A DNA stretch of 35,971 nt from Nitrospinota bacterium (GTDB lineage Bacteria > Nitrospinota > Nitrospinia > UBA9942), in the NCBI GenBank assembly GCA_016200365.1, contig JACQEW010000070.1, positions 1-35,971 of the forward strand, in the 5' to 3' direction. Below the pieces are notes generated by a model. The model was given only the letters and a program-made list of their open reading frames with translations. It searched no databases and was not told where the DNA came from. The translations under genes and the position numbers were made by a program. Shown here piece after piece: positions 58-33,537 of this stretch (its first letter is position 1; each line of letters starts with the position of its first letter).

Positions 58-96
58 AGCGGTGTGAGCACTAAAACCTTTTGTAATAGAATTAAA

Positions 97-876
97 ATGA
101 TACCAAGAATCATAGTTAAAAAAGTAATGTCAAAAGGCATAATATCCGTAAGTCCGGATACCACGCTAAAAAGGGCTGCCGAAATAATGAAATCGCAGAA
201 GATAGGGAGTCTTATTGTCAAAGAAGGTGAGGGGCTTGCCGGTATAGTTACAGAGGTAGACTTTACCCACAAGATAATGACAGGCGAGCTTGACCCTTAT
301 AAAATGACTGTCAGGGATATAATGAGCTCGCCCATTATCAGCATAGAGGCTGACGAGTCTATTGTAGAAGCTCAGGAATTAATGAAGAAAAGGGCGGTAA
401 GACATCTGATTGTAACAGAGAAGGGGAAACCTGCCGGCGTCGTATCGGCAAGAGACCTTGTCCATTTTGAATATCCTGAGGAGGGTGAGCCGTTCTGGCC
501 CAACCATGCAATAAAAAACGCCATGGTTATGTTAGTATGCCTGGGTATTTTAATGACCATTGCCACCTTCAGTCCTGCACCGATGGAGTCTAAGGCAGAC
601 CCATTTTCAACCCCTGAGCATATAAAGCCCCACTGGTATTTCCTTTTTTCCTATCAGCTATTGAAGGCTGCCGAGGTTTTTAAATCAATACATATCGAGC
701 TCCCAAAACTTATAGGCGTCCTCGGACAGGGGGTAATAATATTTTTCATATTATTACTTCCTTTCCTGGATAAGAATCCGGAAAGAGTTTACAGAAAAAG
801 GGCTGTGGCTATAAGTATCGGGATTTTTATAACACTATTGGTAGTTATTTTGACGATATGGGGATATATTTCGTGA
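97..876 (+). CDS. CBS-domain pair fused to a cytochrome b6f subunit IV / cytochrome b C-terminal-domain protein
   Basis: ORF 64..876 has GTG at 64 and ATG at 97 and 127; the start is uncertain. The N-terminal half has two CBS-like repeats (VMSKGIISVSPDTTLKRAAEIMKSQKIGSLIV; IMSSPIISIEADESIVEAQELMKKRAVRHLIV). The C-terminal half matches PetD hallmarks (GEPFWPN, ADPFSTPEHIKPHWYF, KLIGVL) with three hydrophobic helices. Confidence 0.85.
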   Translation: MIPRIIVKKVMSKGIISVSPDTTLKRAAEIMKSQKIGSLIVKEGEGLAGIVTEVDFTHKIMTGELDPYKMTVRDIMSSPIISIEADESIVEAQELMKKRAVRHLIVTEKGKPAGVVSARDLVHFEYPEEGEPFWPNHAIKNAMVMLVCLGILMTIATFSPAPMESKADPFSTPEHIKPHWYFLFSYQLLKAAEVFKSIHIELPKLIGVLGQGVIIFFILLLPFLDKNPERVYRKRAVAISIGIFITLLVVILTIWGYIS

Positions 877-2159
877 AAAAGACAGAAGCAAGAGGCAAGA
901 AGCAAGAAGCAAGAAGTCAGAAGCAAGAATCTCTTGCCTCTTGCCTCTTGCCTCTTGCCTCTTGTTTCCTGCTTCTTGCCTCTTGCCTCTTGCCTCCTGT
1001 GGCAGCATGGGCAGAGGACACTTGCATATCGTGTCATAGGGAATCGGCAGAAGAGAGGGTAAAAGTTTCTATATCAGAGTGGGAAAAGAGTATTCACAAG
1101 ATTGAAAAGGTTAAGTGCCACGACTGCCACGGCGGAGATCCTGAATCAAAAGAAGGAAGCGGTGCACATAAAGTCAATTTTATCGGGAAGCCTGCGAGGG
1201 CAGATATACCGAAATTCTGCGGCAGGTGTCATATTCGTCCATTAAACGATTATCGTAAGAGTAAGCATGAGAGACTCCTGTCCGTGAAAAAGGAAGATGG
1301 CGGCGCCACATGCATTGACTGCCACGGATATCACAGGATAAAAACAAAAAAAGATACCGAGTCTCTTACCTATTATTTAAATGTTCCGCAGACATGCAGC
1401 AGGTGCCATTCCGATCCTGCGAGGATGAAACCATTTGATATGCCAACCAATCAATTTGAACTTTATGAGAAAGGGACGCATGGAGCTATCTTATACGGTA
1501 AGGTGCAGGAGGTAAGCAGGACATCAGCGCCTAATTGTGCCGTATGTCATGGGCATCATGACTCTATGATCTCAACCCATCAGGATATACCCCGCATCTG
1601 CGGTAAATGTCATCTGTCAACCTTTGATAATTTCAAAGAGGGACTTCACTTCGATGCCCTGAAAAAATCAGGGGAGCCGTCATGTGCTTACTGCCATGGT
1701 AATCATAAGGTAATAAGACCGAAGGGTGAGGTATTCGCCGGTTTCAAAAAGGGGGAGTGCGGAGAATGCCATGAAAAATCTTCGGAAGAATTTAAGGTGG
1801 GACTCAATATACAAGGCAGTATAGAAAGACTTGAAAGTTTAAGGAGAGAAGCGAAAAACAGTATCGAAGATGTAAAAAAATATGGAAGAAATACTGCAGA
1901 TTTGGAACAGTTGTATACCGAGCTCAATGCAAATATTCTCATGATTGCCCCTGCAAGCCATTCCCTTGATTTGGATGGGATAAATAAATATGTTGATAAA
2001 ATTTCCACCATATCGGAGGATATTAAAAGGAAGGTAGATGAATTTAAAATGGAGATAAGACATCGTTATGTGGTATATGTCATCTCTATGATAATAATCC
2101 TCACTGCAGTTATTATACTTTTCACACAGCTTTTAATTTATAAAAAGAGTGAGGCATGA
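858..2159 (+). CDS. Membrane-anchored nonaheme c-type cytochrome
   Basis: Nine CXXCH motifs: CISCH, CHDCH, CGRCH, CIDCH, CSRCH, CAVCH, CGKCH, CAYCH, CGECH. The N-terminus resembles a signal peptide ending AWA-ED, and there is a C-terminal TM helix (VVYVISMIIILTAVIILFTQLLIY). ATG at 858 overlaps the upstream gene. An in-frame GTG at 873 forms a GTGA overlap with the upstream stop. Confidence 0.9.
   Translation: MGIYFVKKTEARGKKQEARSQKQESLASCLLPLASCFLLLASCLLPPVAAWAEDTCISCHRESAEERVKVSISEWEKSIHKIEKVKCHDCHGGDPESKEGSGAHKVNFIGKPARADIPKFCGRCHIRPLNDYRKSKHERLLSVKKEDGGATCIDCHGYHRIKTKKDTESLTYYLNVPQTCSRCHSDPARMKPFDMPTNQFELYEKGTHGAILYGKVQEVSRTSAPNCAVCHGHHDSMISTHQDIPRICGKCHLSTFDNFKEGLHFDALKKSGEPSCAYCHGNHKVIRPKGEVFAGFKKGECGECHEKSSEEFKVGLNIQGSIERLESLRREAKNSIEDVKKYGRNTADLEQLYTELNANILMIAPASHSLDLDGINKYVDKISTISEDIKRKVDEFKMEIRHRYVVYVISMIIILTAVIILFTQLLIYKKSEA
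884..995. repeat. Heptad hairpin, GCAAGA family: about 6.5 AGAAGCA-type units followed by 9 CTTGCCT-type units
   Basis: Units were counted directly. The purine arm is 884-929, the short loop is TCT at 930-932, and the pyrimidine arm is 933-995. The whole hairpin lies inside the 5' end of the nonaheme cytochrome ORF. Confidence 0.85.
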
Positions 2160-2172
2160 AGAAAAAATTTTC

Positions 2173-2919
2173 TCATAGCGGCTCTGATATGCCAAGTCTT
2201 CTTATCATCATAAAGTGGGGTATTAAAAGAAAGATGAATATCCACGGCAGTATTGCTACATGAAGGGCAAAGAATCTGGTCAATGTAAGCTGTCCTACAT
2301 CTTCACCGCCCCTTGCTAATATCTTGATGGTATCTCCTATCACGGGAACTGCACCGGCTATCTCGGTGCCTACCACTGTTGCCCAGTAAGAGAGCTGAGT
2401 CCACGGGAGGAGGTATCCCGTAAAACCAAATATCAAAGTTAAGGAGTAAAGTGAAACACCTACAACCCAGTTAAGATCCCTCGGCGGTTTATAGGCAGCA
2501 GAGAAAAATACCTTAAGCAAATGAATAAAGATTGACAGTATCATTAGATTTGAAGCCCAATAATGGATACCCCTTATAAGCCAGCCATAGGGGACATTGT
2601 TGGTTATGTGGACAATGCTGTCGTATGCCTGGTCAACGGTGGGGCGGTAATACATGAGGAGCATTATACCTGTTATTACCTGAATTATAAAAAGAAAAAA
2701 GCTTATACCTCCGAAGCATCCCCAGACAGTAAGACCCTTTGGAACCGGTTTTTTAAGTATCTTCTGTATGGCAAGACGCAGCTCCAGTCTTTCATCCAAC
2801 TCGCCGTAAAAAAAACCTAAAAGGGCAATCCAGTTGAATAGATTTCTCCACCCCACCCCTTTTTTTATTTCTTCTTTTGTCTTATCAGATGCCCTTCTCC
2901 TTTCCATCTCATACCTCAA
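2173..2919 (-). CDS. Cytochrome b6-like protein (N-terminal four-helix cytochrome b domain)
   Basis: Typical cytochrome b/b6 sequence: VWGCFGG, ITGIMLLMYYRP, RGIHYWASNLMILSIFIHLLK and FFALHVAILPWIFIFLLIPHF carry the paired heme-b histidines. It ends with SEPL, as a split b6 does. Confidence 0.9.
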   Translation of the reverse strand: MRYEMERRRASDKTKEEIKKGVGWRNLFNWIALLGFFYGELDERLELRLAIQKILKKPVPKGLTVWGCFGGISFFLFIIQVITGIMLLMYYRPTVDQAYDSIVHITNNVPYGWLIRGIHYWASNLMILSIFIHLLKVFFSAAYKPPRDLNWVVGVSLYSLTLIFGFTGYLLPWTQLSYWATVVGTEIAGAVPVIGDTIKILARGGEDVGQLTLTRFFALHVAILPWIFIFLLIPHFMMIRRLGISEPL

Positions 2920-3003
2920 ATTGAGAAGGAATTCTCAAAAGGGACCCTCAATAAGGGTAAACTTACTTTCAAGAAAATTCCTTCGGATAAAATGATTCCT
3001 TCC

Positions 3004-3456
3004 TCATCCAATTATGACAGCATCCTCTATTAATTTGACATCGTATGTAATAAGAGGTTTTGGCGCTGGACCGGCAATAACATTTCCGTTAAGGTCGAAG
3101 ACGGCGCCGTGGCAGGGGCAGACTACCCGTTTTTGCCCCTCGCTCCAGTTGACAATACAACTCAGGTGCGTGCATATTGCAGACAGGGCATATATCTTTC
3201 CCCCGCTGTTAACGACTATAGCAGCCTTTCCTCTGAGAACTATCTTTTTGGCATTCCCCTCTGTTATTTCTGAAAATGGGATCCTGACCTTTTCTTCCCC
3301 GGTTGAGGCTATAGTTTTCCCGGTGGGCCAAAGGTACCTTAATCCTATAAAACCGAGTCCTATACCTACAACTAATGTCCAGATACCTATGATTCCATTT
3401 AAAGTATCTAAAAGAAATTCCCTTCTAACCATTTTTATTCGTACCATTTGTAACAA
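3004..3456 (-). CDS. Rieske [2Fe-2S] protein with a Tat-like signal anchor
   Basis: Rieske boxes CTHLSC and CPCHGAVF. The N-terminus has an RREFLL twin-arginine-like motif followed by a TM helix. The codon at 3456 is TTG; ATG alternatives are at 3447 and 3432. Confidence 0.9.
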   Translation of the reverse strand: MLQMVRIKMVRREFLLDTLNGIIGIWTLVVGIGLGFIGLRYLWPTGKTIASTGEEKVRIPFSEITEGNAKKIVLRGKAAIVVNSGGKIYALSAICTHLSCIVNWSEGQKRVVCPCHGAVFDLNGNVIAGPAPKPLITYDVKLIEDAVIIG

Positions 3457-3466
3457 AGTAATAAAA

Positions 3467-3495
3467 ATTATAATCTTTCAAAAAGTGGCTGTCAA
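3467..3495 (-). promoter_or_regulatory. Consensus sigma70 promoter for the Rieske/cytochrome b unit
   Basis: The minus strand reads TTGACA (3495-3490), a 17-nt spacer, then TATAAT (3472-3467). It lies just upstream of the Rieske start codons. Confidence 0.6.
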
Positions 3496-3566
3496 CTGAA
3501 TTTTTGTCACTGAATTTTTGTCACTTGAATTTTTGTCAATGTCAATTTTTGTCAAGTGAATTTTTT
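3491..3566. repeat. Five tandem 14-16 bp direct repeats, GTCA(A/C)(N0-2)TGAATTTTT
   Basis: GTCAACTGAATTTTT, GTCACTGAATTTTT, GTCACTTGAATTTTT, GTCAATGTCAATTTTT, GTCAAGTGAATTTTTT. They fill the space between the two divergent -35 boxes. Confidence 0.75.
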
Positions 3567-3593
3567 GAGATGTAAATTCAGGGCATTTATAAT
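3565..3593 (+). promoter_or_regulatory. Near-consensus sigma70 promoter for aspS
   Basis: TTGAGA (3565-3570), a 17-nt spacer, then TATAAT (3588-3593), about 70 nt upstream of the aspS ATG. A GAGGAG RBS sits at about 3646. Confidence 0.55.
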
Positions 3594-3660
3594 TTCTTAT
3601 ACTTCAAAGAAAAATCTGATATACTGATAAAAATTTACTTAATGAGAGGAGCAAAATGAT

Positions 3661-5475
3661 ATGGCTGAGAAATTAAAAAGAACTCACAACTGCGGGGAGT
3701 TGAGGAGCGGCAATGCAGACGAGGCAGTTATACTTGCCGGATGGGTTCACAGACGGAGGGATCACGGCGGGCTTATCTTTATAGATTTAAGGGACAGGAA
3801 GGGGATTACACAGATCGTGCTCAACCCGGAGATTGATAAAATCGCACATACAAAGGCTCATGAGATAAGGAGCGAATATGTGCTTACAGTTAAGGGGAAA
3901 GTGGTTAAAAGACCTGAAGGGACGGCAAATTATAAGATAGGCACAGGGGAGATCGAAGTTATCGCAGAGGACATGGAAATCCTGAACGAATCAAAACCTT
4001 TGCCATTCTTAATAGAAGAAGGCGAGGAGGTATCGGAGATGCTGAGATTAAAATACAGATACCTCGATTTAAGGAGACCTTCACTCAGAGATAATATCAT
4101 ATTGAGGCACAGGGTTGTGAAGAAGGTGAGGGATTTTCTTGACAGCAGGGGTTTTCTGGAGATAGAGACACCCTTTCTCACTAAGAGCACGCCTGAAGGG
4201 GCAAGGGATTATCTTGTGCCGAGCAGATTGAATCCGGGCAAATTTTACGCCCTGCCGCAGTCGCCGCAATTATTCAAGCAAATACTGATGGTGGCAGGAT
4301 ATGAAAAATATTTTCAGGTGGTGAGGTGCTTCCGGGATGAAGATTTGAGGGCAGACAGACAGCCTGAATTTACCCAGATAGACATTGAGATGTCCTTCAT
4401 AGACAGGGAAGATTTGCTGCCGCTCATGGAAGAGATGATGTATGAGATATTCAAGTCATCCATATTCGTCGAGATACCGAGACCCTTTCCTGTCTTGAGC
4501 TACCATGAGGCGATGAACAGATTCGGCAGCGACAAACCCGATACGAGATTCGGGCTGGAGCTAAAGGATATAACATCGCCTGCCTCTAAATCGGATTTCA
4601 AGGTCTTTGCTGAAGCAATAAAAAATGGCGGGGAAGTAAGGGGGATTAATGCAAAGGGGTGCGCCGATTTCTCAAGAAAGGATCTGGACGATTTAACAGA
4701 GGAGTCAAAAATTTTCGGGGCAAAGGGGCTTGCATGGATAAAGATTACACCGGATGGTGTTCAATCTCCGATAGTGAAGTTTTTCTACCCCCCTGTATCC
4801 CCCCTTACAAAGGGGGGAGTGGAAGGGGTTGGGCTTCTTGACGAGATAGTAAGGATAATGGATGGAAAAGCCGGAGACTTGCTCCTCTTTGTTGCAGACA
4901 AGCCTAAGATTGTCTTCGATTCTCTATCTCATCTCCGTCTGAAGTTGGGAGAGAGATTAAAATTAATAGATGAAAATAAATTCAATTTTTTATGGGTAAC
5001 TGATTTCCCTCTGTTAGATTGGGATGAGGAGGGAAAAAGATGGGTTGCAATGCACCATCCCTTCACATCCCCTGTGGATGAAGACATACCCCTGTTTAAA
5101 ACCGACCCAAAGAAAATGAGGGCAAAGGCATACGACCTTGTTTTAAACGGCTCGGAGGTCGGAGGGGGGAGCATCAGGATACACAGAGGGGAGATTCAGA
5201 AACAGATGTTCGATGTCCTTGGATTGACAGAGGAAGAGGCAAAGGCAAAATTCGGCTTTCTCCTTGAGGCGCTTGAATACGGGACACCGCCCCACGGAGG
5301 GATTGCCTTTGGGCTCGACAGGCTCATGGCAATTCTCACAAATTCAAAATCCATCCGCGATGTGATAGCATTCCCGAAAACACAGAAGGCTGTCTGCCTT
5401 ATGACCGATGCGCCATCGAATGTAGAAAAGAGGCAGTTGAAGGAATTGAGCATCAAGCTCGATACCTTACAATGA
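3661..5475 (+). CDS. aspS: Aspartate--tRNA ligase (bacterial type)
   Basis: 604 aa. The N-terminal OB fold reads [20 protein letters not shown]. Class II motifs are present ([31 protein letters not shown]), along with a bacterial-type insertion domain. Confidence 0.95.
4786..4833. repeat. In-frame mini-palindrome inside aspS (CCCCCCTT-ACA-AAGGGGGG plus a G-run), encoding [15 protein letters not shown]
   Basis: The core hairpin 4799-4817 was read directly. The same architecture occurs at 7178-7223, 14108-14140 and 35906-35947. Confidence 0.7.
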
Positions 5476-6953: not shown

Positions 6954-8930
6954 TTACACCTTCATAACAGGCACTGTTATCGTAAAGGCGGTTCCCTTCG
7001 ATATTTCGCTTTCTACCCTTATCTCCCCTCCATGCTCTTTAATGATTCCATAACTTATGGAGAGCCCCAGTCCTGTCCCTTTCCCAATCTCCTTTGTGGT
7101 AAAGAACGGGTCGAATATCTTTCCTATATATTCATTGGATATTCCATTCCCAGTATCAGAGATGATAACATTTACAAATCCCCCCTCACCCCCCTTTTCT
7201 AAAGGGGGGAATGGAGGGGTTATTCCATTCTTCGTCTCAACCTTAATCTTCCCGCCGCCGTTTGTTGCGTCCAGAGCATTGTGTATAATATTCAAAAACA
7301 CCTGCTCCAATCCAGCGGCGCTGCCGAATACAGGCGGCAGTCCATTATAAAGAGACTTCTCAAGTATTATGCCTTTTTTGGATATAGAGCCTTCAAGGAA
7401 CATCAGCACCCTTTCTATAATCTTATTTATATCCTGCGGGCTGAATTCATAAGATGACTCCCGTGAAAATGAGAGGAGGTTTCCTGTTATTTTGGAGACC
7501 CTCATAGCATGGTGCATCATAGCATTCATATCCTTAATAACCTTTTCCGGTATATCGCCGTTTGTATTCTCCATCTTTAACGCCTCTATCCTGTTTATTA
7601 TGATGCCTATAGGGTTATTTATCTCATGTGCAACCCCTGCCGCAAGCAGACCCAGAGATGCCATTTTTTCGGAGTGAATCAATTGCTTCTCATAATCCCT
7701 CACCTGCTTTGTCCTCTCCTCCACCTTTTCCTCGAGGCACCGGCTGTATATCTTGAGCTTCTCCGCCATATTATTAAACTCGGCCGCCACATCCTCAACC
7801 TCATCGCCGCTTCTTATATCCAGCCTGTAATCCAGATTCCCTTTTCCTATCAATTGAACACCCTCTTTTAGCTTTGAAAGCGGATGGGTAAGCATTTTGG
7901 AAATGAATACACCAATGAGTATGGTCAGGAGAACGGCAGCAAGAATTGTAGCTATAAACAGTCTTTTATAATCCTTTACGGCTGCTGTCAGGAGGTTCTT
8001 AGGATAGCTCTCGACAACCGTATAATAAAACTCCTTATTCCTTTCATCGGGGAATACAGCCGTATATGCGAACAGATTCTCATCATCATCCATCACTACT
8101 CCCGACCTGCCGGATAATACCTGAGAAACCACTACTTTTGAATATACATCATTTATATTATCGGGAGACTCGCCTGTATTTAACAAACTCTCCTCCGTCT
8201 CCCATTCGGGATTTAAAAAATAGAATCCCCTGTTGTTCAGAAGGAATATTCGGGAGGTTTTATCTACAATATGCCTCTTCATAGTATCGTAGAGATGCCT
8301 TCCCGTTACATCGAGGTATATAGCGCCCATCCATTTCCCGCTCCTGCCGTAAACAGGGGTGATATAGCGTATCAGGGCTATATTTGAGAGGTTAAGACCT
8401 TTAATCATCCGGCTTATCAATGGTATTGAAGCAACCTCACCCTGTGATAAATTTGCAGCCACATAAAAATGACTACTCCCTCTTTGATTATGCAGACTGC
8501 TTTTCGGAAGTATGACAGGATGGCGCATGTCATAGGCAACCAATGCTATCTCGTCTCCGTTCCGGGATAAAAAGCCTACCTGCAGATAAACCCCTTTTTG
8601 CTCTACAAGGTTAAAAAACTCTTTCTCCAGAAGGGTCCTCCAGTATGTAAAGGAGGCGATGTCATTTAATTCTATCGCCTCTAAAAGATACTCCAGCGGA
8701 GCAGAAGACCGGAGATAAAGCAAATCACCCTTGGAATTATCCAGATGGTTCTCTATATCCTTGCCCCTGGAAAAGACATCGAGGTACATTTTCCTCAGAG
8801 TATCATCCTGCAGAGAATTGCTTGCGGATTTTATGCTGTGATAGCCGAAGTATCCGATTGGCAGGATCGCTGCCAGCATCAAAGAGAGGAATATCTTGTT
8901 CTGGATTCTGGAAAAGAAATTGATTTTCAT
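6954..8930 (-). CDS. Sensor histidine kinase: TM, Cache-like periplasmic domain, TM, HAMP, HisKA, HATPase_c
   Basis: H-box AHEINNPIG, plus N/G boxes (IIHNALDAT, DTGNGI, GTGLGLS) and HAMP (LTHPLSKLKEGVQLIGKGNLDYRL). ATG at 8930 (MKINFF); the track start at 8945 is TTG. Confidence 0.9.
   Translation of the reverse strand: MKINFFSRIQNKIFLSLMLAAILPIGYFGYHSIKSASNSLQDDTLRKMYLDVFSRGKDIENHLDNSKGDLLYLRSSAPLEYLLEAIELNDIASFTYWRTLLEKEFFNLVEQKGVYLQVGFLSRNGDEIALVAYDMRHPVILPKSSLHNQRGSSHFYVAANLSQGEVASIPLISRMIKGLNLSNIALIRYITPVYGRSGKWMGAIYLDVTGRHLYDTMKRHIVDKTSRIFLLNNRGFYFLNPEWETEESLLNTGESPDNINDVYSKVVVSQVLSGRSGVVMDDDENLFAYTAVFPDERNKEFYYTVVESYPKNLLTAAVKDYKRLFIATILAAVLLTILIGVFISKMLTHPLSKLKEGVQLIGKGNLDYRLDIRSGDEVEDVAAEFNNMAEKLKIYSRCLEEKVEERTKQVRDYEKQLIHSEKMASLGLLAAGVAHEINNPIGIIINRIEALKMENTNGDIPEKVIKDMNAMMHHAMRVSKITGNLLSFSRESSYEFSPQDINKIIERVLMFLEGSISKKGIILEKSLYNGLPPVFGSAAGLEQVFLNIIHNALDATNGGGKIKVETKNGITPPFPPLEKGGEGGFVNVIISDTGNGISNEYIGKIFDPFFTTKEIGKGTGLGLSISYGIIKEHGGEIRVESEISKGTAFTITVPVMKV
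7178..7223. repeat. In-frame mini-palindrome inside the kinase ATPase domain, encoding PPFPPLEKGGEGGF
   Basis: Plus strand reads ATCCCCCCTCACCCCCCTTTTCTAAAGGGGGGAATGGAGGGGTTAT. The core hairpin is 7189-7209. Confidence 0.7.
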
Positions 8931-8934
8931 AATA

Positions 8935-9392
8935 GCAATGAGCAACGAGCAATGAGCAATGAGTATTATTTTTGGTATCTCTGTTTTTGTATAGAGACTT
9001 TCAGCCCCCCAATGATGCGAGAAACCTCAATAGCTAAATTACTTATATAATCGAATTCTTCCATGGTAATATAACCCACATCCATTGATACATATAATTG
9101 AGAACGGACTTCAGCACATGAAGCCTTCGCAATCACTATAAAACGATGAAATTCTGATCTGCTACCTCTCTCAAAACCTTCAGCAAGGTTAGACATGATA
9201 GAAACTGAAGATCTTTGAATTTGTTCACGAAGCCCAAAATCTTTCAAAAAAGGACTCTTTTTTGTCAGCAAATAGACCTGTTTTGTCAATTCTCTTGCCT
9301 TCTGCCATGCAACAAGGTCTTCAAATCTATTAACTTTCATCTTTATTCCTCCCTTTTTAATTGCTCATTGCTCATTACTCATTGCTCATTGC
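8935..9392. repeat. Cassette bounded by 29-nt inverted heptad repeats (GCAATGA units), enclosing one gene
   Basis: The left arm 8935-8963 (GCAATGAGCAACGAGCAATGAGCAATGAG) matches the reverse complement of the right arm 9364-9392 at 27 of 29 positions. Confidence 0.8.
8966..9340 (-). CDS. Four-helix-bundle protein ('23S rRNA intervening sequence protein' family)
   Basis: Family hallmarks [18 protein letters not shown] and [48 protein letters not shown] precedes the ATG at 9340. Confidence 0.85.
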
Positions 9393-10277
9393 TTAATACA
9401 AACTGGCGGTCATTTCATAATCCCTGACACACCTGAACCCGATAATATGGCTCACAGCCTCCGGCTCAACACCATCTTTGCTGGCGCACCGCACCTTTGG
9501 CGACAGGTCAACCCATGAGCCCCCCTTCACCACCTTCTTGTCTTTTCCTTGCTTTTGGTCACACCCGGGACAGCCGCCAAACCGGCTGTCCGTCCACTCC
9601 CTGACATTCCCGCCCATATCATGAACTCCATAAGGGCTTACATCTCCCTTGGCAATGCCGACAGGATTGCCTGTATTTACATTACATATCCCCTCTATAA
9701 TGTTTTCTAAAACCGCCTCTGCAGTGCTGGTTAATGCAGGGTCATATTTATCGCCCCACGGATAAGCCCTTCCATCCGTCCCCCTTGCAGCCTTTTCCCA
9801 TTCCTCCTCTGTAGGGAGCCTCTTTCCCGCCCACTTTGCATATTCCTTTGCATCATACCAGCTTATAAAAAGGACAGGATAATGAGCCTTTCCCGATGGA
9901 TACATGCCATTACTCCAATGCTTTGGTGCATGGTATCCGGTTGCATCTATAAATTTTTTATACTGTGCATTGGTTACTTCATATTTGTCAATAAAGAAAG
10001 ACTTTACATAGACCTTCCTCTTAGGCTTCTCGTTTTCATACAGATACCCTTCCATGCCTCCCTTATTGCCATAGACCTTTTTTACTTCCTTAATGTCGTC
10101 GTCGTCGCTCCCCATAACAAATTCACCTTCAGATATAAACACCATGCCCGTTCCATCAGCGCCTCCGCCACCATGTATATTCAGAGGGAGAGAAAAGACA
10201 GGGTAAACAATGAAGAACATAAACAATAAATTCTTTAATTTGGAAATTGGAAATTGGAAATTGGAAATTTTGCTCAT
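9393..10277 (-). CDS. Exported FGE-sulfatase (SUMF1/EgtB/PvdO) family protein, paralog 1
   Basis: YEVTNAQYKKF, GKRLPTEEEWEKAARGTDGRAYPWGD, GNVREWT, KGGSW, GFRC. The AGGAGG RBS and an ATGA overlap link it to the upstream gene. It has an extra CPGC loop. Confidence 0.85.
   Translation of the reverse strand: MSKISNFQFPISKLKNLLFMFFIVYPVFSLPLNIHGGGGADGTGMVFISEGEFVMGSDDDDIKEVKKVYGNKGGMEGYLYENEKPKRKVYVKSFFIDKYEVTNAQYKKFIDATGYHAPKHWSNGMYPSGKAHYPVLFISWYDAKEYAKWAGKRLPTEEEWEKAARGTDGRAYPWGDKYDPALTSTAEAVLENIIEGICNVNTGNPVGIAKGDVSPYGVHDMGGNVREWTDSRFGGCPGCDQKQGKDKKVVKGGSWVDLSPKVRCASKDGVEPEAVSHIIGFRCVRDYEMTASLY
10240..10267. repeat. Four TTGGAAA heptads (single arm) inside the 5' end of FGE paralog 1
   Basis: Counted directly. 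They are translated as ISNFQFPI. The same heptads in the same coding sense occur at 28064-28091. Confidence 0.8.
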
Positions 10278-11827: not shown

Positions 11828-12463
11828 ATGAAGATCGCTTCTTTGGTTATAGTTTTAAGCATTTTTGTATCTGTAAATATTGCAAACGCTGCCGACGATG
11901 ATATGGCTCTCGTATCAGGCGGCAAATTCTCTTTTGGCGAAGATAAGAAGAAAATAGAGCTTGGAGACTTTTATATTGATAAATATGAGGTAACCAATGC
12001 CCAGTATAAAAAGTTCAGACCGGAGCATGAAATCCCTGACGGAAAAGAGAATCACCCTGTAGCAGACATCTCCTATTTTGATGCAGAGGATTACTGCAAA
12101 TCGGCAGGCAAGAGAATTCCAACCTCTGAGGAGTGGGAAAAGGCTGCACGGGGAACGGATGGAAGGGCTTATCCGTGGGGCGATAAATTCGATTCCAAAA
12201 AGGCGAATACAAGCGAGGGAGGCAAAGGCGGCACGGTAAAAGTTGGATCCTACGAGGGGGGGAAGAGCCCTTACGGCGCTTATGATATGTCCGGCAATGT
12301 ATGGGAATGGGTTGATGCATGGGACAGCAAAAAGCAGTACAGGGTTGCACGGGGAGGCTCTTACTTTGAGGGTGATGATATGAACAGAACCACATCCTCG
12401 CTTATGAGTATTCCGGATGACATTCACGAGTATATCGGCTTCAGGTGCGCAAAGAGCAAGTAA
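11828..12463 (+). CDS. Exported FGE-sulfatase family protein, paralog 2
   Basis: Signal peptide MKIASLVIVLSIFVSVNIANA. YEVTNAQYKKF, GKRIPTSEEWEKAARGTDGRAYPWGD, GNVWEWV, RGGSY, GFRCAK. GGAGG RBS. Confidence 0.9.
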   Translation: MKIASLVIVLSIFVSVNIANAADDDMALVSGGKFSFGEDKKKIELGDFYIDKYEVTNAQYKKFRPEHEIPDGKENHPVADISYFDAEDYCKSAGKRIPTSEEWEKAARGTDGRAYPWGDKFDSKKANTSEGGKGGTVKVGSYEGGKSPYGAYDMSGNVWEWVDAWDSKKQYRVARGGSYFEGDDMNRTTSSLMSIPDDIHEYIGFRCAKSK

Positions 12464-13147: not shown

Positions 13148-13528
13148 TCACAGGGTTTTTAGATATTCAATTATATCACTTCTCTTATCATCATTAGACA
13201 TCACGGGGATTTTCGGCATGTGCTTTTTAAAATTTTTTTTGTGCCCCTGAGCTATAGGATCGCTACTATCCATCATCTTTTTCGGGTCTTTAAGCCATCT
13301 ATCAATCCACTCAATATCCCTTCGTTTGGTCACATTCTTTAGTCCTGGTCCTGTAGAAAGCTGCTCGGTTGTCTTATGGCATTGGCGACACCTCTTTTTA
13401 AACAACTCCTCACCTGCCGAGGCATCGCCAGCATAGGATGGTAGTTTAAACAAAAGAAGCAAGAAACAAGATGCAAGATACAAGATTTTTCTTGCTTCTA
13501 ACTTCTTGCTTCTTGTTTCTTGTCTCAT
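13148..13528 (-). CDS. Exported monoheme class I cytochrome c
   Basis: CRQCH motif followed by STGPGL, with a distal MP motif. Signal peptide MRQETRSKKLEARKILYLASCFLLLLFKLPSYA-GD. It forms an ATGA overlap with the upstream stop. Confidence 0.9.
   Translation of the reverse strand: MRQETRSKKLEARKILYLASCFLLLLFKLPSYAGDASAGEELFKKRCRQCHKTTEQLSTGPGLKNVTKRRDIEWIDRWLKDPKKMMDSSDPIAQGHKKNFKKHMPKIPVMSNDDKRSDIIEYLKTL
13452..13525. repeat. Heptad hairpin, GCAAGA family, entirely inside the cytochrome c signal-peptide codons
   Basis: On the + strand, a purine arm 13452-13486 and a pyrimidine arm 13491-13525. Confidence 0.8.
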
Positions 13529-14227: not shown

Positions 14228-14368
14228 AACCACAGAGACACTGAGACACAGAGAAAGAAAAAAAGATTAAAAAAGAGGAAAGATGCAAGAGGCAAGAAAA
14301 AAAATCTTGCTTCTGGCTTCTTACTTCTTGTTTCTTGTTTTTCTCTGTGCCTCCGTGTCTCTGTGGTT
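14228..14368. repeat. Two-layer nested hairpin: CACAGAGA-type outer arms around a GCAAGA-type inner hairpin
   Basis: Outer arms are AACCACAGAGACACTGAGACACAGAGAAAG (14228-14257) and TTTTCTCTGTGCCTCCGTGTCTCTGTGGTT (14339-14368). The inner hairpin is 14271-14337. Confidence 0.8.
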
Positions 14369-19782: not shown

Positions 19783-20907
19783 TTATTTCTTCACGGACGT
19801 CCTATACTCTACTTCATTATCACCGATTGCAGCTCCTGTATCCTTTGCGCTACCCTTTGTCTTTACACCGACCAGCTTGCTTGATGTTCTGCCGCCGCCG
19901 GGAGTATCATATCCGCCAACCAATCCGCCGCCTCTTCCTCCCATCGAGCCTTCAAGCTCAAGCTGCTCATTGGATTCTTTAAAATCCTTGCTGTCCTTTG
20001 CATTGGCTGCAGTAATTTTTCCTTCATCTGACTTTGCATCAAATGCCGGTTTTGCAAGGGATCGCATAAAGGCAACTACATTCCAGATATCCTGATCCTG
20101 AAGGACATTACCCCATGCAGGCATTGACTCTGAAAGGTTCCTTGCAGGACCTCCCCCTTTTATTACTGCAAAGAGCTCAAGATTGCTGATGTGATTCATA
20201 TATTTTCCATTTGTCTGGTTCCTTGGCCTTGGGTCTAACACTGATGCAGTCGGACCATCACCCTTTGCAAACCAGCCGTGGCAGTGCACACAATAAAAGC
20301 TGAACCAGTGGGCGCCCTGTGCCGGGTCTGCCCCTGCTACGGTCGTCTCTCCTGTGGCTGAATCGGGTCTTGTAAGTGAATTCCACCGATTTACCCACTC
20401 ATTATAATCACCGCCTAATTTTGATGCTCCTGTTGCCTTTCTCTGCCATACCTCTGTAACACCTGTCTCTTTTGCCCAGCCGGAACGGGCTTCGCCTACC
20501 CTTTTAAGATCAAGAGGAACTGCATATTTGGTCTTCCACCTCTCATTTATTTTTTTGGAAAGGGGGCTGGTCTTTCCAAGCTCTGTCTTATCCACATCGG
20601 TGGACTGAATCTTACCAACGCCTGTAAGATAATCAAACCCGGTAACACCATAAACGGATTTACCTGAGCCCTTCACACCGGTCTTAGTCTCAAAGGACTC
20701 GACATTCGCCTCATCTGCCTCTTTTCCATAACTTTCTCTTGCCTTTTTTAGCGCCTCATCTGTCTGATCCCCTTCCTTTTTTGCCTTTTCAAGATCTTCC
20801 TTTGAAATCTTTGCCGCAGATACCTTTGTTACAGATAGGGATGCGTCCAGAGAAAAACTGATTGCAAAAACCGCTATTAATAAAAATATCCATTTCCCTT
20901 TGTTCAT
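19783..20907 (-). CDS. Exported protein with a C-terminal class I cytochrome c domain
   Basis: Signal peptide; CVHCHGWFAKGDGP ... SMPAWG motif; Gly-rich tail; AGGAGG RBS. Confidence 0.85.
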   Translation of the reverse strand: MNKGKWIFLLIAVFAISFSLDASLSVTKVSAAKISKEDLEKAKKEGDQTDEALKKARESYGKEADEANVESFETKTGVKGSGKSVYGVTGFDYLTGVGKIQSTDVDKTELGKTSPLSKKINERWKTKYAVPLDLKRVGEARSGWAKETGVTEVWQRKATGASKLGGDYNEWVNRWNSLTRPDSATGETTVAGADPAQGAHWFSFYCVHCHGWFAKGDGPTASVLDPRPRNQTNGKYMNHISNLELFAVIKGGGPARNLSESMPAWGNVLQDQDIWNVVAFMRSLAKPAFDAKSDEGKITAANAKDSKDFKESNEQLELEGSMGGRGGGLVGGYDTPGGGRTSSKLVGVKTKGSAKDTGAAIGDNEVEYRTSVKK

Positions 20908-26291: not shown

Positions 26292-26391
26292 TTTTACCGC
26301 AGAGATGCAGAGGCACAGAGAAAAATATAAATATTTTAAAAAGATTTTAATATCTCTGCGTCTCCGCGCCTCTGCGGTTTATAATTTCCTT
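26282..26391. repeat. About 110-bp repeat element, copy 2 (hairpin 26296-26378 plus conserved flanks)
   Basis: Same orientation and near-identical arms and flanks as 11564-11674. Confidence 0.85.
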
Positions 26392-26394
26392 GAC

Positions 26395-27189
26395 ATGAAA
26401 ATTTTAAAATTTACAATAGGTTTAATTTTACCCTTTGCAATTTTCAATATTCAATCTGCAATATCATTAGAACCTCCATTTCCACCAGACGGTATGGCTC
26501 TTGTGCCTGCCGGGGAGTTCATAATGGGCAGTAACAGGAACGAGATTGAAAAAGCTGTTAAGGATGCCGGCGGAAAAAAGGAGTGGTTTTTCGATGAAGA
26601 GCCGAAAAGGAAGGTAAACATCCCTTCTTTTTATATTGATATATACGAGGTAACAAACGAGGACTATAAAAAATTTGACCCAAACCACAGCTTCCCCTCT
26701 GATAGGGCAAAACATCCTGTAGTCAATATAACATGGAATAAGGCAAACGATTACTGTAAATGGGCAGGCAAAAGCCTGCCGACAGAGGAGGAATGGGAAA
26801 AGGCTGCAAGAGGGACAGATGAAAGGATTTATCCATGGGGAAATGAATTTGATAAACACTTAAATAATTCCTATGAATCCGGACTTGGAGGCGGTACAAG
26901 AGTTGGGCAGTTTGCTTTAGAAACATCAGGGGCCGCTGGTTTTGGAGGGACAACTGAGGTAGGGACATACAAAGATGGAAAGAGTCCTTACGGTGTATAC
27001 GATATGGCGGGAAATGTCTGGGAGTGGACAGATAACTGGTATAATAAAGAGAGAAATCTTAAGGTTATTAAAGGCGGGTCATGGCAGAGCCCTTCAATAA
27101 GCACAAGGAGCGCTGCGAGACTCGGCGAAAATCCTAACATGGAATCCAATGATTACGGATTCAGGTGTGCAAAGGACTACAAAAATTAG
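26395..27189 (+). CDS. Exported FGE-sulfatase family protein, paralog 3
   Basis: ATG at 26395 gives the signal peptide MKILKFTIGLILPFAIFNIQSA. YEVTNEDYKKF, GKSLPTEEEWEKAARGTDERIYPWGN, GNVWEWT, KGGSW, GFRCAK. The track start 26305 lies inside the hairpin. Confidence 0.85.
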   Translation: MKILKFTIGLILPFAIFNIQSAISLEPPFPPDGMALVPAGEFIMGSNRNEIEKAVKDAGGKKEWFFDEEPKRKVNIPSFYIDIYEVTNEDYKKFDPNHSFPSDRAKHPVVNITWNKANDYCKWAGKSLPTEEEWEKAARGTDERIYPWGNEFDKHLNNSYESGLGGGTRVGQFALETSGAAGFGGTTEVGTYKDGKSPYGVYDMAGNVWEWTDNWYNKERNLKVIKGGSWQSPSISTRSAARLGENPNMESNDYGFRCAKDYKN

Positions 27190-30767: not shown

Positions 30768-31247
30768 TCAGTGCCTGAATTTTTCATGGCAGATATTGCA
30801 GCTTTCAATCAGAGGAGAAAGATCCGCAAGCGCCTTGTCTCTGTTTCCAGCCATGGCATCGGCGGATAGTTCGTCCGCTTTTGTGTGCATTGCCTTGCCG
30901 ACGGTTAAAAAATCTTTACCTGCCTCCCCCGCAGACTCGCCGAATATAGAACACATTTTTTCCTCCGACTCATTCCATCCAAGGTTTCCCTTTGCAATTT
31001 TAGCGGCTTTTTCCAGTTCGTTTGCCGCAAGGGCAGCGGTAATCTTGCCTAACGCATCCAGATGCCCCCTCATTATGCTTTTATGCATCGCCTTCATAGA
31101 CTCCGCCATTTTCAGTTCTATTCGCGTATCGGATTTATGTCCTCCCTCTTTCATCATCGTCTCGTGCATATGAGAATGATCCGACGCAAATGAAACGGCT
31201 GCCGCAAAAATACCGGTTACTGCCGTAACTAACATTGTTTTTTTCAT
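30768..31247 (-). CDS. Exported class II (cytochrome c'/c556-like) four-helix-bundle cytochrome
   Basis: Signal peptide, helical Ala/Lys/Met-rich sequence, and a single CXXCH at the extreme C-terminus (CNICHEKFRH), as in class II cytochromes. GGAGGGGG RBS. Confidence 0.7.
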   Translation of the reverse strand: MKKTMLVTAVTGIFAAAVSFASDHSHMHETMMKEGGHKSDTRIELKMAESMKAMHKSIMRGHLDALGKITAALAANELEKAAKIAKGNLGWNESEEKMCSIFGESAGEAGKDFLTVGKAMHTKADELSADAMAGNRDKALADLSPLIESCNICHEKFRH

Positions 31248-32163: not shown

Positions 32164-33537
32164 ATGAAAAATATCTGCAAGTTATTCGGAAAAACCCTTA
32201 TTATTTTAACCCTTTTACTTTTTGGCTCTGCCGAGGCAGCGGTCATATCCGTCCCTTTGCAGTTTAAGAGCATTCAGGAGGCGGTTAATGCTGCATCTTC
32301 GGGTGATACGGTTCAGGTCTCTGCCGGCGTCTATAAAGAGCAAATCAAATTGAAGACGGGCGTAACAGTAAAAGGCGAAGGGTATGAAAAGACGACAATA
32401 GACGGCAGCAAGAAGGACGGCAGCGTAGTTGTCGGGGCAAGCGATGCCGTAATCGAAGGATTTACCATTAGGAACAGCGGTATCAGGGGCAGGCAGGGCG
32501 ATGCCATGGACGCAGGCATAAAGATAGACAGCGCTGCTATGGCGGTATTGAACAACAGGATTATAAATAACAATGCAGGCATCCTGTCATTTCACGGCTC
32601 GACCTCGCTCATTGCAAATAATATAATAGAGGAGAATGAGAATTTCGGCATCTATCTCATCTATTCAAACCCACTCATCGAAAACAATATCGTGTATCGA
32701 AACAAGGTTCGCGGTATCTTCTGCGCCTATTCAAAGCCTGAAATAGTGAATAATACCATCGTTGCCAACCCGACCGGTATATACACTGAAGTATCGAGCT
32801 CTGTAATTAAAAATAATATTATTACAGATTCCGATGCTATTGGGTTTCAGATAGCGGAATCGCCGAGGGACCAGAAGGGCGTAGAGCCTTATTTATCTTA
32901 CAATGTCTTTTATAATAATGGACATGACCTTTCCAATGTGGAGAAAGGGGAAGGCGATATTACGAAAGATCCATTATTTGCAGATGGAGCAAAAAGGGAT
33001 TTCAGGTTAAAACCGAATTCCCCTGCGGCAAATGCCGGCGACCCTGATCCAAAATATAATGACCCTGATAGAAGCAGGGCAGATGCAGGCGCTTTCGGGG
33101 GTTCCCATGCAGCCGGCAAGGAAAAAAGCAGGAACTGGACAGCTTTTAAAAAATCAAAAGAAGGTGAGGCTGTTGCAATAGAGAAGAACTATATGACAGC
33201 CCGCAGCCTCAGCGAGAAAGGGTCAAAGGGCTATAAAGAGGAAAATACCAGGGTCAACTATTACAGCTACTGCGCCCCTTGTCATGGACAGACAGGAAAA
33301 GGTGACGGCCCCCTTGCAGAAAGTCTGGAGCAGGGAGTTGTGCCTCGAGATCATACGAGTGCGGAATATTTTTCCCAAAAGACAGATGATGAGATTTTTG
33401 AAGTGATAAAACACGGCGGTGTAAAGGCGGGATTCAGCGAGACAATGCCGCCCTTTGACGGACAGATTTCCGATGACGCTATGAGAGACCTTGTAAAATT
33501 CATAAGGGAGCTCTGCAATTGTCAGTATAAGAAGTAA
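32164..33537 (+). CDS. Exported right-handed parallel beta-helix (NosD/CASH-like) protein fused to a C-terminal monoheme cytochrome c domain
   Basis: Signal peptide. Repeated beta-helix rungs (ITIRNSGIRG, IINNNAGILSF, IIEENENFGIYLIYS, IVYRNKVRGIFCAYS, TIVANPTGIYTE). The C-terminus has YCAPCHGQTGKGDGP ... TMPPF. AGGAGG RBS. Confidence 0.85.
   Translation: MKNICKLFGKTLIILTLLLFGSAEAAVISVPLQFKSIQEAVNAASSGDTVQVSAGVYKEQIKLKTGVTVKGEGYEKTTIDGSKKDGSVVVGASDAVIEGFTIRNSGIRGRQGDAMDAGIKIDSAAMAVLNNRIINNNAGILSFHGSTSLIANNIIEENENFGIYLIYSNPLIENNIVYRNKVRGIFCAYSKPEIVNNTIVANPTGIYTEVSSSVIKNNIITDSDAIGFQIAESPRDQKGVEPYLSYNVFYNNGHDLSNVEKGEGDITKDPLFADGAKRDFRLKPNSPAANAGDPDPKYNDPDRSRADAGAFGGSHAAGKEKSRNWTAFKKSKEGEAVAIEKNYMTARSLSEKGSKGYKEENTRVNYYSYCAPCHGQTGKGDGPLAESLEQGVVPRDHTSAEYFSQKTDDEIFEVIKHGGVKAGFSETMPPFDGQISDDAMRDLVKFIRELCNCQYKK

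Follow-up and report, generated by a model that had tools for sequence, protein, structure and literature searches.

What kind of respiratory complex is encoded at the left end of contig JACQEW010000070.1 of a Nitrospinota bacterium (assembly GCA_016200365.1), where a pair of CBS domains is fused to a cytochrome b subunit? Rieske/cytochrome b complexes are central energy converters, and their direct regulation, beyond gene expression and nearby kinases, is poorly known. The stretch analyzed here, referred to as the window, covers positions 1 to 35,971 of the contig. It begins with four genes, which encode a Rieske protein, a cytochrome b6, a fusion of a CBS pair to subunit IV (SUIV), and a cytochrome c that has a membrane anchor and nine CxxCH motifs. 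The best reading of the sequence is that the locus encodes the full core of a b6-type Rieske/cytochrome b quinol:cytochrome c oxidoreductase, for which Q-cycle activity is predicted. The four genes are arranged as follows.

97..876, plus strand: CBS-pair::SUIV fusion gene, 259 amino acids, recognized with Pfam; the longest open reading frame (ORF) is 64..876, from the GTG at 64.
858..2159, plus strand: nonaheme cytochrome c with a signal peptide, a C-terminal coiled coil and a transmembrane (TM) anchor, recognized with Pfam and a motif script.
2173..2919, minus strand: four-helix cytochrome b6 with four His ligands and the CFGG cysteine.
3004..3456, minus strand: Rieske 2Fe-2S protein with CTHLSC and CPCHGAVF boxes and a twin-arginine signal anchor.

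An original prediction, made from the DNA letters alone, had placed a tandem CBS pair at the N-terminus of SUIV. Pfam bears this out, in that one frame of 64..876 contains two CBS domains (PF00571, 2.2e-28) followed by Cytochrom_B_C (PF00032, 2.7e-17). All fusion homologues start at the ATG at 97 (MIPxIxVKK), so the most likely gene span is 97..876. A fused frame or a convergent junction might be nothing other than an assembly or frameshift artefact; coverage of the locus is low, with a word depth of ∼3–8, but we found no evidence in favor of this reading. The locus was found in four separate groundwater-metagenome runs, and Logan contigs from these runs cross both junctions, the CBS/SUIV junction at 38-722, 204-675 and 297-533 and the convergent junction at 1258-2323, 1366-2586, 1380-2427 and 2132-2643. 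No insertions or deletions are listed for these contigs across the 3.7-kb stretch, and the fused ORF is repeated in 35 other protein clusters from many studies, making 36 with that of the window. A frameshift or misassembly, for which we checked specifically, does not explain the fusion, and the chance that either junction is artefactual appears negligible.

How widespread the fusion is depends strongly on how the search is made. A single-sequence search of 5.8 billion proteins gave only four fused clusters, and an exhaustive phmmer search over 1.84 billion representatives gave one other full-length match. Further fused genes (contigs L070 and L071), which the word index had missed, were reached via contigs of b6 homologues. 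From a profile built on six fused proteins we obtained 36 clusters with the CBS and Cytochrom_B_C architecture, and the family therefore comprises at least 36 clusters. With this result we dropped the description of the fusion as almost unique, and the expectation that it would be peculiar to the window genome did not survive. Where the sources name these proteins, they are called "CBS domain-containing protein" or "hypothetical protein", and the metagenome-assembled genomes are labelled Nitrospirota, Nitrospirae or Nitrospinae. The genome nearest to the window is Nitrospinae bacterium RIFCSPHIGHO2_02_FULL_39_82 (MHDI01), at 76% identity. Two sets of matches were rejected as fusions, neither having a CBS domain: an Abyssobacteria match (L010, query residues 68-259) stems from an ORF that was called too long and overlaps the 3' end of b6, and those in Nitrospirales (L018 and others, residues 55-254) stem from cytochromes b in which b6 and SUIV are fused.

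A neighbor-joining tree restricted to the SUIV part unites all 35 fused sequences in a single clade that contains no unfused sequence, and the clade of the window (P0001-P0003) is the first branch within it. A single clade with no unfused member implies that the fusion arose once, and the sequences thus indicate that the CBS::SUIV fusion is a genuine single-origin family. Nothing that links CBS domains with SUIV/PetD or with bc complexes was found in the literature searched; the fusion is rare and is not described in that literature.

The fusion protein divides into two parts, which were delimited as follows.

118..462, plus strand: Bateman module of two CBS domains, residues ∼8–122, delimited by AlphaFold2 (AF2), Foldseek and conservation.
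478..873, plus strand: SUIV part with helix E, the ef loop/helix, and helices F and G, delimited by AF2 and phmmer.

The AF2 model was computed from an alignment of 59 sequences and has a mean predicted local distance difference test score (pLDDT) of 79 and a predicted template modelling score (pTM) of 0.42. Its CBS part adopts two successive beta-alpha-beta-beta-alpha folds, with ten-residue block means of 73–89 over residues 1–120. Foldseek matches this part to CBS pairs with E-values down to 7.5e-14 and target-normalized TM-scores up to 0.81; the best 50 matches are CBS-domain structures throughout, mostly stand-alone pairs (2ef7, 4fry, 2p9m, 2rc3). No match to the membrane part occurs among those best 50, and a PDB sequence search served for SUIV. 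By phmmer, the SUIV part matches bc1 cytochrome b chains and b6f subunit 4 chains at ∼1e-11, and AF2 places helices at residues 133-158, 180-197, 202-224 and 232-258. SUIV is here a separate subunit with three TM helices and an ef helix, homologous to the C-terminal part of cytochrome b. The conserved segment directly after the CBS pair, GEPFWPNH, aligns with GEPAWPND, residues 27–34 of Synechocystis b6f SUIV in the PDB. In the solved b6f structures the N-terminus of SUIV lies on the n side of the membrane. Given this alignment, the Bateman module must replace the short n-side N-terminal tail of SUIV and is predicted to be cytoplasmic, the location that had been proposed for it from the letters alone.

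Mean pairwise identity within the family is 63% for the CBS part and 72% for the SUIV part, and the alignment indicates that the CBS part is under purifying selection. Its invariant residues across 35 clusters are G49-I-x-T52-x-V-D55, R102-H103 and G114-x-x-S117-A-R119-D120, which comprise the two ribose-type motifs, GIVTEVD and GVVSARD, and an Arg-His pair. An invariant T/S-x-x-D and R-H pattern is what would be expected of the ribose- and phosphate-contacting residues of adenosine-ligand sites, and by analogy it suggests that the module has such sites. The CBS pair might instead be a structural add-on, acting as a dimerization clamp beneath the dimeric complex or as a docking site for a cytoplasmic partner, or it might sense ionic strength, Mg2+ or redox state and not a small molecule. 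CBS pairs commonly dimerize and some function without nucleotides, the proteins that match best in structure are free-standing CBS proteins to which no function is assigned, and a hemerythrin gene that follows b6 in contig L073, or lies at some distance from it in contig L079, hints at other sensory inputs. Against such a role stands the invariance of both T/S-x-x-D motifs together with the R-H pair in all 35 clusters, which resembles an adenosine site, and we consider a structural or non-metabolite function of the CBS pair unlikely.

The cytochrome b6 and Rieske proteins supply the rest of the quinol-oxidizing core, and all four gene identities given in the original prediction agree with Pfam and with the cofactor motifs. 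The product of 2173..2919 matches Cytochrome_B (PF00033, 2.2e-57) and scores 254 bits against the NCBIfam cytochrome b6 subfamily. It has four helices with two pairs of His haem ligands, on helices B and D, H119/H133 (spacing 14) and H220/H235 (spacing 15). Its WGCFGG motif provides the cysteine of the CxGG type (Cys68) to which the extra n-side haem ci (cn) is predicted to attach, and the n-side loop near haem ci reads PVPKGLTVWGCFGG. The product of 3004..3456 matches the Rieske family (PF00355, 2.6e-16), with the cluster-binding boxes CTHLSC at residue 95 and CPCH at residue 113. In high-potential enzymes, a Ser and a Tyr in the Rieske box raise the potential. The box of the window protein, CPCHGAVF, has neither, which points to a low-potential enzyme that probably oxidizes menaquinol.

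The Rieske-b6 unit is preceded by a promoter-like site.

3495-3467, minus strand: TTGACA-17-TATAAT, 12/12 positions, a match to the sigma-70 consensus only.

The probable start of the Rieske protein is its third Met (MVRREFL, ∼nt 3432), which begins a twin-arginine signal. The consensus site and the Rieske orthologue in contig L070, which begins at the equivalent Met, both favor this start. A 35-nt deletion variant (window 3505-3539) is present in the Rieske/aspS intergenic region in contigs from two of the four runs and falls between two divergent promoter-like sites.

The two pairs of genes converge, and the 13-nt gap noted earlier between their stop codons, with ends at 2159 and 2173, was reproduced in the ORF table. 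Within the plus-strand pair, the cytochrome c start overlaps the SUIV stop, either at the ATG at 858 or at the GTG at 873 as a GTGA overlap; the overlap is also present in relatives, and it would fit translational coupling. The convergence had been singled out as a special feature of the locus, and the gene order of relatives shows it to be specific to this lineage. Whereas the genes of the window are not all co-directional, as those of a b6f-type operon would be, three fused lineages (L071/L072, L079 and L070) carry them co-directionally in the order Rieske-b6-CBS-SUIV-nonaheme c-(cytochrome c554-like), and the unfused relatives L075 and L010 have the same co-directional operon without CBS. 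The presence of this order in both fused and unfused relatives argues that the convergent layout is a local rearrangement and not a design feature. The window order is the exact outcome of one inversion of half the Rieske-b6-CBS-SUIV-nonaheme c operon, and on this comparison the layout is, as we read it, an ordinary, lineage-specific local inversion. By themselves, the convergent layout and the nonaheme cytochrome are unremarkable. For the gene identities, the fusion and the inversion taken together our confidence is high.

In contig L070, the fusion gene is followed at 2322-3474 by a gene with a TIR domain, a short ORF and a gene with a PIN domain, inserted into an otherwise intact operon; this looks like a defence or toxin-antitoxin cassette that landed in a respiratory operon. 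In contig L079, a hemerythrin gene (7969-8376) lies ∼2.5 kb downstream of the Rieske-b6 locus on the opposite strand.

Separation of the b6 and SUIV genes is common in the fusion family. Contigs L001 and L008, which are 76-77% identical relatives of the window, have the SUIV/cytochrome pair away from b6, in the order tmk-mogA-like / CBS-SUIV-nonaheme c / nucleotidyltransferase-like, the last of these being an unrelated gene. L032 and L033 (76% match) probably share this order. A b6 that is 88% identical to that of the window (L065) is flanked by a dihaem cytochrome c gene upstream and by radical-SAM genes downstream. In a large split subclade (L007, L076-L078), the order is tig-clpP-clpX-CBS-SUIV-(FixO-like cytochrome c)-U32-U32-SCP2. 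Contigs L073 and L074, from the same sample series as that subclade, contain a cytochrome c-Rieske-b6-hemerythrin locus without SUIV (L073 5066-7381).

These separated loci could mean that the CBS-SUIV protein and its cytochrome c work without this b6 and Rieske, for example with another b-type partner, and that their adjacency in the window is coincidental. The SUIV and cytochrome c genes do indeed lie away from b6/Rieske in L001, L008, L007 and L076-L078. However, the Rieske-b6 unit of the window, like the locus of L073, has no SUIV of its own, and Rieske-b6 loci without SUIV are the complement of CBS-SUIV loci without b6, which supports joint action of the two halves. All four genes also occur in one operon in three lineages. 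SUIV binds no redox cofactor and builds the Qo site together with cytochrome b, which likewise counts against an independent module. We regard such a module as improbable.

In the split subclade, which is the largest fused subclade, the two peptidase-U32 genes and the SCP2 gene follow the FixO-like cytochrome c (6001-9864 in L076/L077/L078, and in L007). We take this trio to resemble UbiU/UbiV/UbiT of O2-independent quinone hydroxylation, so that a link to quinone biosynthesis is possible.

A second peculiarity of the window complex concerns the quinol oxidation site.

628-639, plus strand: Qo motif P-H-W-Y (CCC CAC TGG TAT), with His in place of the Glu of PEWY.

This His aligns with the PEWY Glu of bc1 cytochrome b (1bcc_C) and of b6f SUIV (7r0w_J), and in the phmmer comparison with the PDB the window segment HIKPHWYFLF aligns with HIKPEWYFLF of chicken cytochrome b. 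The carboxylate of PEWY or PDWY, supplied by a catalytic Glu in nearly all such enzymes, is thus replaced. This is no bar to membership in the Rieske/cytochrome b family, because accepted members have other noncarboxylate variants (PMC4122944). Among 199 motif-bearing SUIV and cytochrome b C-terminal sequences, we counted PEWY in 169, PEWF in 24, PHWY in three, PEWV in two and PDWY in one. His was found only in P0001-P0003, the small basal clade to which the window belongs; of the remaining fused clusters, 32 have Glu, as PEWY, PEWF or PEWV, and one sequence has no Qo motif. Kao and Hunte (2014), who relate natural variation of the Qo motif to quinone potential or type and to pH, name PEWY, PDWY, PVWY, PPWF, APWY, PPWY, PAWY and GPWY/F (PMC4122944). 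PHWY is not among the variants named in their main text, and a word search of the literature for PHWY gave nothing relevant; a search for the Glu-to-His mutants E295H, E272H and E78H found no relevant papers. The motif is thus as unusual as the original prediction had supposed, and PHWY is not described in the literature searched.

The His might be no adaptation at all, and simply near-neutral drift at a nonessential position or the mark of a complex that runs mainly in reverse or at a low rate. According to a 2021 article in Chemical Reviews, mutation of the PEWY Glu has modest effects, and the residue is described as not essential, with its role unresolved (PMC7908018). The fourth position of the motif varies as well within the fusion family (PEWY, PEWF, PEWV), and one contig (L070) reads PAWY. 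The PHWY clade, moreover, is on a long branch with a further change after the ef helix, FLGxWAPK to SIHIELPK. Two observations speak against drift: the change from Glu (GAR) to His (CAC) requires two nucleotide substitutions, and the window, L001, L008, L032 and L033 all encode the His as CAC, in sequences that are 75-77% identical and in which the preceding Ile, Lys and Pro codons vary synonymously. We consider drift, or a mainly reverse or low-rate complex, fairly unlikely, and the codon pattern indicates that the PHWY His is a real, selected, lineage-specific variant at a position known to tolerate change. That it acts as a proton relay is possible, at odds somewhat below even. The PAWY of L070 (fusion gene 1235-2017, codon GCG) may be a genuine variant or may reflect a sequencing error; cluster P0386 (53%) has PEWY in a motif region otherwise equal to that of L070. 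The b6 proteins of the PHWY clade also differ from those of their relatives: the n-side PHVN before helix A is changed to KGLT (residues 62-64), the residue after the first haem ligand is changed (H120Y), and Y140S is present.

The electron exit of the complex would be the nonaheme cytochrome. The product of 858..2159 matches multihaem cytochrome c families in Pfam and has a hydrophobic N-terminal signal for export and a C-terminal TM helix. The nine haems predicted for it stand, as a motif script found nine CxxCH motifs, and all nine, like the coiled coil and TM anchor at the C-terminus, are conserved without exception in seven orthologues. It falls well short of the GSU2203 decahaem family (36 bits vs 325). 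The same cytochrome family follows SUIV in L070, L071, L079, L075 and L010, and these gene orders indicate that Rieske/b6 operons of this branch regularly include the nonaheme cytochrome, whether or not their SUIV is fused to CBS domains.

The 5' end of the cytochrome gene contains a repeat.

884..1000, plus strand: heptamer inverted tandem repeat, which encodes the n- and h-regions of the cytochrome signal peptide.

The pattern, (GCAAGAA/GCAAGAG)n followed by (TCTTGCC)n, forms a long imperfect hairpin with 45-nt arms that are 84% complementary. Its in-frame translation gives the charged n-region (KKQEARGK...) and the hydrophobic h-region (LASCFLLLASC) of signal peptides. The repeat is at the 5' end of at least three genes for exported proteins in the window, at 884-1000 (plus strand), ∼13455-13520 (minus strand) and ∼14280-14340 (minus strand), with 13 matches vs 0.09 expected, and it also occurs in L006, L008, L032 and L033. 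The cytochrome orthologue in L001 has an ordinary signal peptide. Over 884..1000 the word depth is 110-230, compared to 0-12 over the rest of 125-3700, and there are many loose ends; the repeat is therefore a high-copy element in these metagenomes. A change in copy number would shift the frame, so that phase variation is possible, as is an RNA hairpin.

Taken together, these observations suggest an account of how the complex arose and works, and as a whole we lean towards it. Its components would be a Rieske protein anchored by its twin-arginine signal, a four-helix b6 with the haem-ci cysteine, a three-helix SUIV, and the membrane-anchored nonaheme cytochrome c as the electron exit. An ancestral operon of the order Rieske-b6-CBS-SUIV-nonaheme c would have had one half inverted, leaving two pairs of genes that converge and are transcribed from separate promoters, and in the nearest relatives the operon halves would have drifted fully apart. 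On the cytoplasmic side, the CBS pair would lie beneath the n-side (Qi/haem ci) surface of the dimer and bind an adenosine-containing ligand via the invariant T/S-x-x-D ribose motifs and R102-H103. The ligand state could then alter turnover, access to Qi or assembly, which would tie electron flow to the energy or metabolite status of the cell. In the proton-exit network of Qo, the PHWY His would take over from Glu as the protonatable residue, with a different pKa.

Several points weigh against this account. The inversion is the simplest reading of the gene orders and not a reconstructed event, and the left flank of the unit is cut at the window end. The linker (residues 125-130) has pLDDT <50 in the AF2 monomer, and with a pTM of 0.42 the model gives no confident CBS-to-membrane geometry and does not predict the position of the CBS pair relative to the membrane part. 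The quinone type is read from the Rieske box residues alone. Finally, most fused members retain Glu, so the fusion is not tied to PHWY and the two are not functionally linked; with Glu in 32 of the 36 fused clusters, we rejected such a linkage.

The regulatory part of the account is correspondingly weaker than the structural part. That the complex is regulated by a ligand is a tentative proposal, made by analogy with other Bateman modules. The most specific form of the account is that of a ligand-gated Q-cycle enzyme, in which an adenylate or another adenosine metabolite at the CBS pair switches quinone reduction or turnover and, in the basal PHWY clade, the His retunes proton release at Qo, and this form must be called doubtful. 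If it were true, energy charge would throttle proton-motive electron flow, and the complex would be the first of the bc type with a regulatory nucleotide sensor as a built-in part. A conserved, single-origin metabolite-sensing module on the n side of SUIV would offer a concrete example of how a Q-cycle enzyme might be controlled allosterically.

Some other features of the window lie outside the complex. Just 5' of the fusion gene, at 18-61, there is a palindromic element, TTCAGCCCCTGATTGAATCTTTCAGGGGCTGAA, with a word depth of 13-84 vs 0-12 over most of the rest; contigs end at 18 and 61, and the element looks like a REP-like (repetitive extragenic palindromic) repeated hairpin. The window is rich in redox genes: it has three genes with an FGE-sulfatase domain, further genes for several c-type cytochromes and for redoxins, and one CcmH-like gene; the loci are 9393-10277 (minus strand), 11828-12463 (plus strand) and 26305-27189 (plus strand), and 13148-13528 (minus strand), 19783-20907 (minus strand), 30768-31247 (minus strand) and 32164-33537 (plus strand). 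One of the c-type cytochromes is fused to a NosD-like beta-helix, and one is cytochrome c'-like. A free-standing gene of the "23S rRNA intervening sequence protein" family (PF05635, 8.6e-37) occupies 8966-9340 (minus strand), with a histidine kinase gene on one side and an FGE-sulfatase gene on the other.

How does the window complex compare with known systems? The b6-type complexes of nonphototrophs (Geobacter ExtO-P-Q/Cbc-type, anammox R/b, Bacillus QcrABC, heliobacterial PetABCD) share with it the Rieske protein, one or more adjacent c-type cytochromes, and the split cytochrome b, which in all of them consists of a four-helix b6 with the CxGG cysteine and a three-helix SUIV. The window differs from them in the CBS pair on SUIV, the nine-haem partner with its C-terminal anchor, the PHWY motif and the convergent genes. 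The best NCBIfam match of its b6 is cytb_ExtP (NF040969), at 255 bits and below the cut-off of 290, and against ExtQ (NF040970) the window protein scores 22.6 bits (cut-off 150). PetD of the cyanobacterial and chloroplast b6f complex has the same fold and topology as the window SUIV, and the GEPxWPN, ef-loop PxWY and PF..D motifs of the two align, with a score against PetD TIGR01156 of 48.2 bits (cut-off 127). With all three scores below the cut-offs, the window complex is a relative of these families and not a member. In place of the 26-residue N-terminal tail of PetD, the window SUIV has a 125-residue Bateman module; nine extra residues lie between its ef helix and helix F, and His stands in for Glu78. 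The n side of PetD is a known regulatory surface, where Stt7 kinase is activated and the N-terminus is phosphorylated.

At the Qo site, the variants of Kao and Hunte (PMC4122944) are likewise lineage-specific replacements of the second residue of the motif, but the Val, Pro and Ala that they contain are not protonatable, whereas the His of PHWY is. A CBS-bearing redox Q-cycle complex was not found in the literature searched. The closest parallels to the fusion are MgtE, ClC, CNNM/CorC and OpuA, in which a cytoplasmic Bateman module is similarly fused to the TM domain of a dimeric membrane protein and the T/S-x-x-D ribose motifs are conserved as in the window CBS pair. In those proteins the machine attached to the CBS domains is a channel or a transporter, whereas in the window it is a redox Q-cycle enzyme. 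By analogy with them, we infer that a metabolite signal from the cytoplasm may act through the module on how active the dimer is or on how it assembles.

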